IMG/VR virus record: IMGVR_UViG_2728369591_000008
Span: 1-16,498 of that record
Length of the DNA stretch: 16,498 bases
Reading direction: 5' to 3' (one strand)
Source: a virus
Taxonomy: Duplodnaviria > Heunggongvirae > Uroviricota > Caudoviricetes
A program made the position numbers and the translations under genes. Below are positions 9,104 to 9,918 of the stretch, piece after piece. Within the stretch, counting starts at the first letter, position 1. Each line of letters begins with the position of its first letter. The notes beneath the pieces are model-generated. The model was not told where the DNA came from, made no database searches, and was given only the letters and a program-made list of their open reading frames with translations.

Positions 9104-9634
9104 ATGACTAAGCTGACCATTAACAGAAAACCAAAAGGTATTTACGGCACGCCGCAGAAAACGACGCAGGCGGCGCAGCAGCAGGATAAAACCACATCGG
9201 CGCATAAAGTGATGCCCGGTAACCAGAAAGCGCAGCAGAAGCCCACAGGGGCAACACCGTGGCGGCATATGACCAAACGGCAGCGAAAAAACCGCAGACG
9301 CGTTAACCGCCTCACTGAGTTGTGGCCTGAATTATTCAGCCGGGAAGCACCGAAGCCGCTTAAGGTGGGGATATTCGACGACCTGATGCAGGATCTCGCC
9401 GTCAGGGGGCTGGCATTCGGGCCAGGGGCATTGCGTGCGACGCTGGCATCTTATGCGCAGTGTCCGCGCTATTACCGCGCCTTAATGGCTGGTGGGGTAC
9501 GCTACGACCTGAAATGCCAGCCGTGCGGCGAGGTGACACCACAGGAACAACAGGACGCAGAAACGCGGCTGGTTGCGCTGAATGAGAAACGCAAACGTCA
9601 GCGTCGGGCAGCAAAGGAGAAAACAGGCGCATGA
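9104..9634 (+). CDS. ProQ/FinO-domain RNA-binding protein (176 aa)
   Basis: Segment PLKVGIFDDLMQDL...LRATLASYAQCPRYYRALMAGGVRYDLKCQPCGEVT parallels the ProQ N-terminal FinO domain as I recall it (PLKIGIF...RxDLDGNPCGEL); basic Lys/Arg/Gln-rich N-terminus; start chosen at ATG 9104 because GGGG at 9093..9096 gives a better RBS than for ATG 9092. Confidence 0.75.
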   Translation: MTKLTINRKPKGIYGTPQKTTQAAQQQDKTTSAHKVMPGNQKAQQKPTGATPWRHMTKRQRKNRRRVNRLTELWPELFSREAPKPLKVGIFDDLMQDLAVRGLAFGPGALRATLASYAQCPRYYRALMAGGVRYDLKCQPCGEVTPQEQQDAETRLVALNEKRKRQRRAAKEKTGA

Positions 9635-9918
9635 TTCACGACAGCAAAGCGGAAGCTCTGGAAGCGCGTGGTCTGTACCGGAGAGCGGCGGCGCGGTGGG
9701 CTGAGGTCATCATGCTGGCGAATGATGACAAGGCACGGGAGCAGGCGGCAAAACGTCGCGCGGAATGTATCCACAAGGCAGCACGCCCACCAGCAAGGCA
9801 GGATAATTTCGGGGAGATGCGCAAAACCATCAGCCGGGCACATGCCGGAATGGGATTACATCAGCCCAATGGTGAGGCATTCAGGAAATACCAAAAAAAG
9901 AACAATTGTAGTCAGTAA
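9631..9918 (+). CDS. PerC/Pch-family transcriptional regulator-like protein (95 aa)
   Basis: N-terminus MIHDSKAEALEARGLYRRAAARWAEV matches the conserved PerC-family N-terminal pattern as I recall it; ATG overlaps the upstream stop (ATGA). Confidence 0.7.
   Translation: MIHDSKAEALEARGLYRRAAARWAEVIMLANDDKAREQAAKRRAECIHKAARPPARQDNFGEMRKTISRAHAGMGLHQPNGEAFRKYQKKNNCSQ

Follow-up and report, generated by a model that had tools for sequence, protein, structure and literature searches.

PerC-family proteins differ in what they do at LEE1. Pch activates LEE1 only under silencing by H-NS/StpA (with Hha), lowers the occupancy of H-NS at the LEE1 promoter, is found by ChIP at many AT-rich chromosomal sites and shows no homology to DNA-binding proteins (PMC4764244). 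By contrast, pchD and pchE, which represent groups 2 and 3 of the family, are reported not to be LEE activators (PMC7369912, PMC11773190). PchE is reported not to activate LEE1, and its overexpression leads to repression of csgD and curli and to more flagella; deletion of pchE left adhesion unchanged (PMC7369912). LEE1 fusions were unaffected by the PerC-like genes of EcCIEDL933 (PchE) and EcCICFT073, according to work cited in PMC11773190. Finally, EcCIMP1_025 silences a LEE1-lux fusion in a dose-dependent manner in C. rodentium, and membership of the ANR (AraC negative regulator) family has been proposed for it (PMC11773190).

The occurrence of such genes on phage satellites has also been described. 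PICI-coded PerC homologues, some of them activating the LEE, were reported by Fillol-Salom (2018; PMC6092414). Pick et al. (2025) present PerC-family regulators as typical PICI genes and assayed one of them (PMC11773190). An adjacent pair of proQ-like and PerC-like genes appears in region ROD34 of EAEC 042 in the 2010 genome paper (PMC2808357), a layout that we checked in the sequence and confirmed. In a 2026 survey of Enterobacter PICIs, PerC and ProQ are accessory genes (PMC13612085). The idea that PICI-borne PerC genes bear on virulence is not new (PMC6092414, PMC11773190, PMC2808357), and the gene considered below is of an already annotated and already described kind.

The DNA studied here, called the window, is a stretch of 16,498 nucleotides (positions 1 to 16,498 of IMG/VR virus record IMGVR_UViG_2728369591_000008). 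Its PerC-like gene resides on a 14.5-kb PICI-type phage satellite of E. coli, inserted in tRNA-Gly(CCC). The window begins within a gene for an M23/LysM peptidase, which related genomes annotate as ActS. The tRNA-Gly(CCC) gene follows (835..908, + strand; detected by ARAGORN, the Rfam tRNA model and an exact pattern), and its 3' end, 891-908, is attL. The satellite genes then succeed each other on the + strand, with a tyrosine integrase (1033..2286; Pfam Arm-DNA-bind_3, Phage_int_M and Phage_integrase), an AlpA-family regulator, which is the PICI inducer gene (3407..3604; PF05930, E 2.4e-19), an AntA antirepressor (3682-4482), an RgdR-like DUF4222 protein (6628..6918; PF13973, E 1.3e-19), which is 48% identical to RgdR/ECs1581 of Sakai Sp7, and a P4/D5-type primase-helicase, the satellite replication protein (6915..8720; Pfam D5_N, DUF5906 and Pox_D5; TIGR01613). 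Several small ORFs, also on the + strand, lie between the AntA and DUF4222 genes. The presence of integrase, AlpA and primase on this strand bears out the initial annotation, which had placed the PerC-like gene on a satellite island.

A predicted iteron origin occupies 8748..9085, with 11 copies of GGTAGACNGTT arranged in both orientations around AT-rich DNA. Only one further match of this sequence occurs in the window, the other 11 of the 12 being within 8748-9085, in the 372-bp gap after the primase gene, for an expectation of 0.5 per whole window. The GC content of the origin region (8801-9200) is 35.5%, and the iteron layout is that of Gram-negative PICI origins (PMC6092414). At the other end of the element, the candidate attR (15406..15422, + strand) is a unique exact match of TTCCCTTCGCCGCTCCA, a 17-nt direct repeat that reproduces the tRNA 3' end except for one absent C. 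Because this copy of the tRNA end lies where related islands stop matching, the element is taken to be about 14.5 kb long. Pfam and PHROG scans of the window ORFs detected no capsid, tail or lysis families. Judged from its sequence, the element has all the features of a PICI-type satellite: an integrase at one end, alpA, a primase, a single orientation, iterons flanking AT-rich DNA behind the replication gene, and a size of about 15 kb with att repeats.

The iteron origin ends 7 nt ahead of the start of a ProQ/FinO-domain gene (9092..9634, + strand; 180 aa; Pfam PF04352, E 2.9e-22), the product of which shows 33% identity to plasmid FinO over the FinO domain. Some annotations place its start 12 nt later, giving a protein of 176 aa. 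This gene is the first of a two-gene cassette, and the PerC-family (Pch-like) gene is the second (9631..9918, + strand; 95 aa plus stop, ATG start). Since the stop codon TGA of the ProQ-like ORF occupies 9632-9634 and the ATG of the PerC-like gene begins at 9631, the two genes overlap as ATGA (9631..9634, + strand), as read from the sequence and as initially claimed. A Shine-Dalgarno sequence, AAGGAG (9614..9619, + strand), precedes the ATG by 11 nt and falls within the last part of the ProQ-like gene; AAGGAG, CAAGGAG or GGAGG is retained at the equivalent position in other loci. The tight junction is also kept in diverged copies, the genes overlapping by 4 nt in E. ruysiae (locus L021) and by 14 nt in Salmonella and being separated by 2 nt in E. 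albertii. From this overlap, translation of the PerC-like gene is probably coupled to that of the ProQ-like gene, and the arrangement suggests that both are carried by one transcript. Three promoter-like sites were found for the cassette, vs. 2.3 expected from shuffles, which is not significant. On the + strand, a scan of 8600-10200 revealed no terminator-like site, including after the PerC-like gene, where one might have been a candidate FinO-type RNA target, and folding of the segment 9905-9965 does not exceed that of shuffled sequences (z 0.31). Some copies combine a broken ProQ-like gene with an intact PerC gene, the lesion being a premature stop in one locus (L008) and a frameshift in another (L013). 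Neither the partner nor the coupling is therefore strictly required by PerC. In other genomes, the alignment across the cassette is split by an IS1.

Downstream of PerC, and not separated from it by any terminator found in the scan, lies the gene for a predicted lipoprotein of 380 aa (10053..11195, + strand; lipobox LTGC) for which Pfam, PHROG and PADLOC scans gave no family match. In this island lineage, the lipoprotein gene adjoins the 3' side of PerC, the region behind PerC being variable cargo. PADLOC gave no match either for the PerC-like, ProQ-like or cargo genes. The cassette has a high GC content (59% and 52.5%), and AT-rich stretches with 31-44% GC are found downstream, at 10.0-12.0 kb and 13.6-15.2 kb.

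Membership of the PerC family, initially proposed from the N-terminal pattern, is well established. The protein matches Pfam PerC (PF06069) with 110.8 bits (cutoff 22.6; E 3.8e-32), its residues 1-89 aligning on profile positions 1-89 of 90, that is over the full length, and it also matches phrog_994 (E 2.3e-35). Alignment with the characterised proteins PerC, PchA, PchD, PchE and EcCIMP1_025 gives 35-50% identity and reveals a common N-terminal motif, with A7, L10, E11, G14, R17, R18, A19, R22, W23, R36, R43 and C46 invariant in all six proteins. Across 58 homologues, the invariant positions are E8, G14, Y16, R17, R18, A19, R22 and C46. Divergence between copies of the gene is concentrated in the C-terminal half, with a mean pairwise identity of 69% for residues 1-55 vs. 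40% for residues 56-90. Like its relatives, the window protein is a small stand-alone protein on mobile DNA. A Pfam scan with E up to 10 found PerC and a sub-threshold match to DUF6771 in it; as concerns the ANR similarity, this Pfam scan lent it no support, showing PerC alone for the window protein, EcCIMP1_025, PchE and PerC. An exhaustive profile search among 1.84 billion representatives yielded 335 clusters (50% identity), the best 150 of which have sizes of 36-161 aa. Ten longer members were scanned and contained the PerC domain alone, with no fused domain. Domain fusions were thus dropped as a functional clue.

The reading frame itself is under purifying selection. Compared with 32 other 95-codon alleles from related loci, separated from it by at most 117 nucleotide differences, its dN/dS is 0.00-0.68. 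The small size of the gene and several overlapping mechanical ORFs are all that would speak for a decaying or chance ORF without function. The Pfam score (E 3.8e-32) and a dN/dS well below 1 lead us to reject a spurious ORF, and thousands of assemblies carry an intact copy, so that we give this explanation almost no credit.

Which PerC subgroup the protein resembles bears directly on the function that had been implied for it, namely the activation of virulence regulators. Its identity is 42% to EPEC PerC, 41% to PchA and 35% to PchD, vs. 50% to PchE and 46% to EcCIMP1_025. None of the 105 database homologues of 85-125 aa has PerC or PchA as its best reference. By sequence, the nearest studied relatives are therefore two satellite-borne proteins, PchE and EcCIMP1_025. 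These identities place the window protein outside the PerC/PchABC activator group, and assignment to group 1 (PerC, PchA/B/C) was rejected on identity (42%/41%) and on genomic context. Because the protein is closer to PchE and EcCIMP1_025, which do not activate LEE1 or repress it, than to PerC and PchA, the role of virulence activator is unsupported, and the window protein is probably not a LEE1 activator.

This comparison weighs on the explanation in which the protein, like PerC and PchA/B/C, would activate ler/LEE or another virulence regulator, so that carriage of the island would raise host virulence. The Pfam family and the N-terminal motif are indeed those of PerC and PchA, and some PICI-coded PerC homologues are stated to activate the LEE (PMC6092414). 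However, the identity to either activator is only 42% or 41%, conservation of the C-terminal half is poor (mean pairwise identity 40%), and the PICI homologues assayed so far either have no effect at LEE1 (PchE of EcCIEDL933 and the CFT073 copy, as cited in PMC11773190) or repress it (EcCIMP1_025). Moreover, cassette DNA matching at 99.9-100% is found in isolates from horse, pig, human and chicken meat and in avian-pathogenic strains, and syntenic homologues are present in satellites of genera without LEE. No LEE lies in the window itself. The link to host virulence that had been suggested initially is not upheld, and we regard virulence activation as improbable.

The closeness to PchE (50%) and EcCIMP1_025 (46%) also speaks for an opposite role, in which the protein would act as an anti-virulence or lifestyle switch, repressing adhesins, curli or the LEE and raising motility, so that the island would confer a phenotype on its host. 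The repression of csgD and curli with increased flagella upon PchE overexpression (PMC7369912) and the silencing of LEE1-lux by EcCIMP1_025 (PMC11773190) agree with it. However, the phenotypes come from plasmid overexpression, and adhesion did not change when pchE was deleted (PMC7369912). Furthermore, conservation of targets is not guaranteed at 46-50% identity, and a switch of this kind does not account for the constancy with which the gene sits behind the origin in satellites from many genera. Such a switch is conceivable, but we hold it to be rather unlikely.

This position was documented in 94 loci, 14 from bacterial genomes taken at one per species and 80 from IMG/VR, in which primase, ProQ-like, SSB-like and capsid genes were placed by tblastn; the sample is biased to relatives having the two N-terminal peptide patterns used for scanning. 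A satellite primase gene lies at most 2.5 kb upstream of PerC and on the same strand in 81 of the 94 loci, the primases being of D5/P4 type, of TOPRIM/DUF927 type or chimeras. Directly upstream of PerC is a ProQ-like gene in 54 loci out of 94, and an SSB-like gene without ProQ in 27 (27/94), while PerC comes straight after primase and origin in five. A capsid module is located 3' of PerC in at least 18 loci, which are capsid-forming PICIs, and three of the 94 loci are P22-like prophages. The loci include representatives of Salmonella, Enterobacter, Kluyvera, Shimwellia, Atlantibacter, Pantoea, Erwinia and Lonsdalea. None of these eight genera is known as a LEE carrier. Since 81 of the 94 loci place PerC behind a satellite primase and origin, including in genera without LEE, its genomic context makes the gene look like part of the satellite backbone and not like cargo for virulence.

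The same survey raises the possibility of a satellite life-cycle protein that would not regulate the host and would act at or after replication, in concert with the primase or with the SSB-like or ProQ-like protein. It might turn on the packaging, interference or cargo genes downstream, or target the helper phage. The gene order seen in 81/94 loci, with primase and origin first, then an SSB-like and a ProQ-like gene (each optional) and finally PerC, is consistent with this explanation, as is the location of PerC directly upstream of the capsid module in the capsid-forming PICIs (at least 18 loci). In the minimal 8-kb element of EAEC 042, SSB, ProQ and PerC are nearly the sole post-origin genes. 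In addition, the family is near-absent from isolated phages, with two weak partial matches among 50,697 deposited phage genomes. Evolutionary rates can be read in the same direction. Over the 54 loci with both genes, PerC shares 58-100% identity with the window copy and ProQ 80-100%; PerC thus diverges much faster than the neighbouring ProQ-like gene, and fast divergence of the C-terminal half beside a conserved ProQ-like gene is what would be expected if the protein tracked variable partners. On the other hand, no experiment in the literature ties PerC homologues to excision, replication, packaging or transfer, the EcCIMP1 copy is far from the primase, and family members also occur outside such satellites, in lambdoid late regions, P22-like prophages, plasmids and islands without primase. 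A purely life-cycle function is accordingly a minor candidate, which we rate slightly below the lifestyle switch.

How such a small protein may act was approached through its predicted structure. An AlphaFold2 model built with 58 homologues has a mean pLDDT of 79, each 10-residue block over residues 1-50 scoring 87-92. The modelled helices span residues 5-13, 16-29 and 33-51, and are followed by two less confident helices. The model thus suggests an all-helical product of about 95 aa, the conserved N-terminal half of which may form a TPR-like three-helix unit, with a weak match over about 52 residues. A Foldseek search of the PDB with this model gave nothing at E below 3, no related sequence was found in the PDB, and no recognisable DNA-binding domain was detected in the protein. 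Direct contact with DNA is nevertheless possible, because Pch associates with many chromosomal sites in ChIP (PMC4764244).

Taken together, the reading that we favour, and hold to be somewhat better than an even bet, is that the gene is functional and Pch-like, that it is the second gene of a FinO/ProQ-PerC cassette located at the satellite origin, and that its product is an anti-silencing modulator with targets other than the LEE. The cassette, starting directly behind the iteron origin, would supply a FinO/ProQ-domain RNA-binding protein and then the PerC-like protein. The latter would shift transcription at AT-rich promoters silenced by H-NS/StpA/Hha, by contacting the nucleoprotein complex and not in the manner of a classical DNA-binding activator. 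Satellite, helper-phage or host surface-structure genes would be likelier primary targets than the LEE. The precedent for anti-silencing is PchA alone, which is 41% identical to the window protein. One may also speculate that a GC-rich cassette lying between an AT-rich origin and AT-rich downstream genes fits with relief of the silencing of satellite genes.

A broader version, which we put forward tentatively and judge clearly less likely than the anti-silencing modulator, is that PerC belongs to a conserved post-origin backbone module (optional SSB-like, optional FinO/ProQ-like, PerC) having an ancestral satellite role, the control of the LEE having been co-opted later. One possible ancestral job would be the relief of H-NS silencing at AT-rich late or cargo genes of the satellite; alternatively, the fast-evolving C-terminal half might bind variable helper-phage or host partners.

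The cassette recurs in other E. coli genomes. The 1.1 kb around the gene (window 9000-10100) are 100% identical to DNA of E. coli O78:H4 APEC E123, in which RefSeq annotates a "ProQ/FINO family protein" and a "PerC family transcriptional regulator" (WP_021518384.1). Of 5426 complete E. coli genomes, 297 carry DNA similar to the cassette (window 9000-10100), in every case in the chromosome, and the exact PerC-like protein is indexed in 2543 blocks of an assembly collection. The finding as such adds little, as the gene is annotated and the literature already covers PerC homologues on PICIs as well as the pairing of ProQ-like with PerC-like genes. What we consider worth keeping is the view of this PerC clade as a backbone gene of enterobacterial satellites, usually paired with a gene for a nucleic-acid-binding protein. 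Its fixed position behind the satellite origin across many genera suggests, on the basis of gene order, a role in the satellite life cycle. A practical consequence is that the label "PerC family" should not be read as "virulence activator", a caution that rests on the nearest studied relatives of the clade, which have the opposite effect or none at LEE1.

When set beside the known systems, the window gene shares with PerC and PchA/B/C the family, the motif KAExLExxGxYRRAAxRW...R...C and the character of small stand-alone helical proteins carried by mobile DNA. The contexts differ, that of EPEC PerC being the perABC operon of the pEAF plasmid, with perA and perB, and that of PchA/B/C the lysis/late region of EHEC lambdoid prophages. 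PerC and PchA/B/C are proven LEE1 activators, and Pch is an H-NS anti-silencer (PMC4764244); judging from sequence relationships, LEE1 activation of this type is unlikely in the window clade. The closest named relative within the family is PchE (ECs_1588; Sakai Sp7, or the capsid-forming PICI EcCIEDL933), which is likewise satellite-borne, downstream of primase and origin and on the same strand. However, in Sp7 an SSB-like gene instead of ProQ/FinO precedes pchE and a capsid and packaging module follows it, and at 50% identity the targets need not be common. EcCIMP1_025, from the PICI EcCIMP1 of E. coli MP1, is also a PICI-borne PerC-family protein and, among the PICI copies, the sole one for which a phenotype has been published, the repression of LEE1-lux. 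Its gene differs in lying near the far end of EcCIMP1, away from the primase and without a ProQ-like partner, and EcCIMP1 itself has a TOPRIM/DUF927 primase and is integrated at tRNA-Thr. Finally, Ec042-2429/2430 of ROD34 in EAEC 042 are neighbouring ProQ/FinO and PerC genes that follow a satellite primase, as in the window, although the 042 element measures 8 kb, is integrated at tRNA-Pro and encodes a DUF927-type primase, with an additional SSB-like gene ahead of ProQ.

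The gene pair formed by the ProQ-like and PerC-like genes lies behind the replication module of the satellite. An iteron block containing eleven GGTAGACNGTT iterons, which occur in both orientations and surround AT-rich DNA, occupies positions 8748-9085 and directly separates the primase gene from the ProQ-like gene. This block is the satellite origin.

Within the pair, the two genes differ in their integrity and in their divergence. Among the related PerC loci collected from bacterial genomes and IMG/VR, L008 (9462-10001) carries a premature stop in the ProQ-like gene and L013 (9461-10001) a frameshift in the same gene; in both loci, the PerC-like gene is intact. 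In 54 loci among L021-L101, the PerC-like alleles are 58-100% identical to the window copy, with divergence mostly in the C-terminal half of the protein, and the adjoining ProQ-like gene is 80-100% identical to the window copy. In three matches from the search of complete E. coli genomes (H18-H20), the alignment around the cassette is split by IS1. The last 50 nucleotides or so of the window (16448-16498) resemble an IS1 terminal repeat, which would account for the thousands of matches obtained with the whole window.

Among 50,697 deposited phage genomes, only two matches to the PerC-like protein were found, both weak and partial. In contrast, 287 stretches classified as viral in IMG/VR encode a relative. 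Eighty of these were kept for a survey of gene layout; many are contigs of about 10-17 kb, and the satellite primase-PerC layout is found in most of them.

In the island lineage of the window, the gene following PerC (10053-11195, + strand) encodes a predicted lipoprotein of 380 aa with an LTGC lipobox, for which no family match was found in Pfam, NCBIfam, PHROGs or PADLOC. Further downstream, a 181-aa protein (12379-12924, + strand) has an N-terminal HTH_17 domain and weakly resembles the N-terminal part of the small terminase subunits in phrog_57. It is a candidate TerS-like or packaging-redirection gene product of the satellite. The segment 13675-15167 (+ strand) encodes a DUF4747 protein (E 9.5e-98) and an overlapping 199-aa ORF, named SDH-family Clp-fold serine protease in RefSeq relatives. 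PADLOC gave no match for this cargo, and in sister islands that share the core of this one the same place is occupied either by MTase, GmrSD and HEPN, by an OLD-like AAA_15/TOPRIM protein, or by GapS1. Therefore, the segment looks like a defence hotspot with a candidate uncharacterised system. The island is closed by an imperfect attR (15406-15422), corresponding to the tRNA-Gly 3' end without one C.

On the integrase side, an int-alpA RNA motif (RF02996; 2331-2398, + strand) lies in the gap that separates the integrase gene from the ORF after it (Rfam, 39.3 bits for a gathering score of 35.8). Finally, the protein encoded by the DUF4222 gene (6628-6918, + strand) shares 48% identity with RgdR (ECs1581), which is the other type III secretion regulator that PICIs encode. 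RgdR has an RGD motif, in which the R20C change was reported to abolish activity (PMC3378721), whereas the DUF4222 protein of the window reads PGD at this place.
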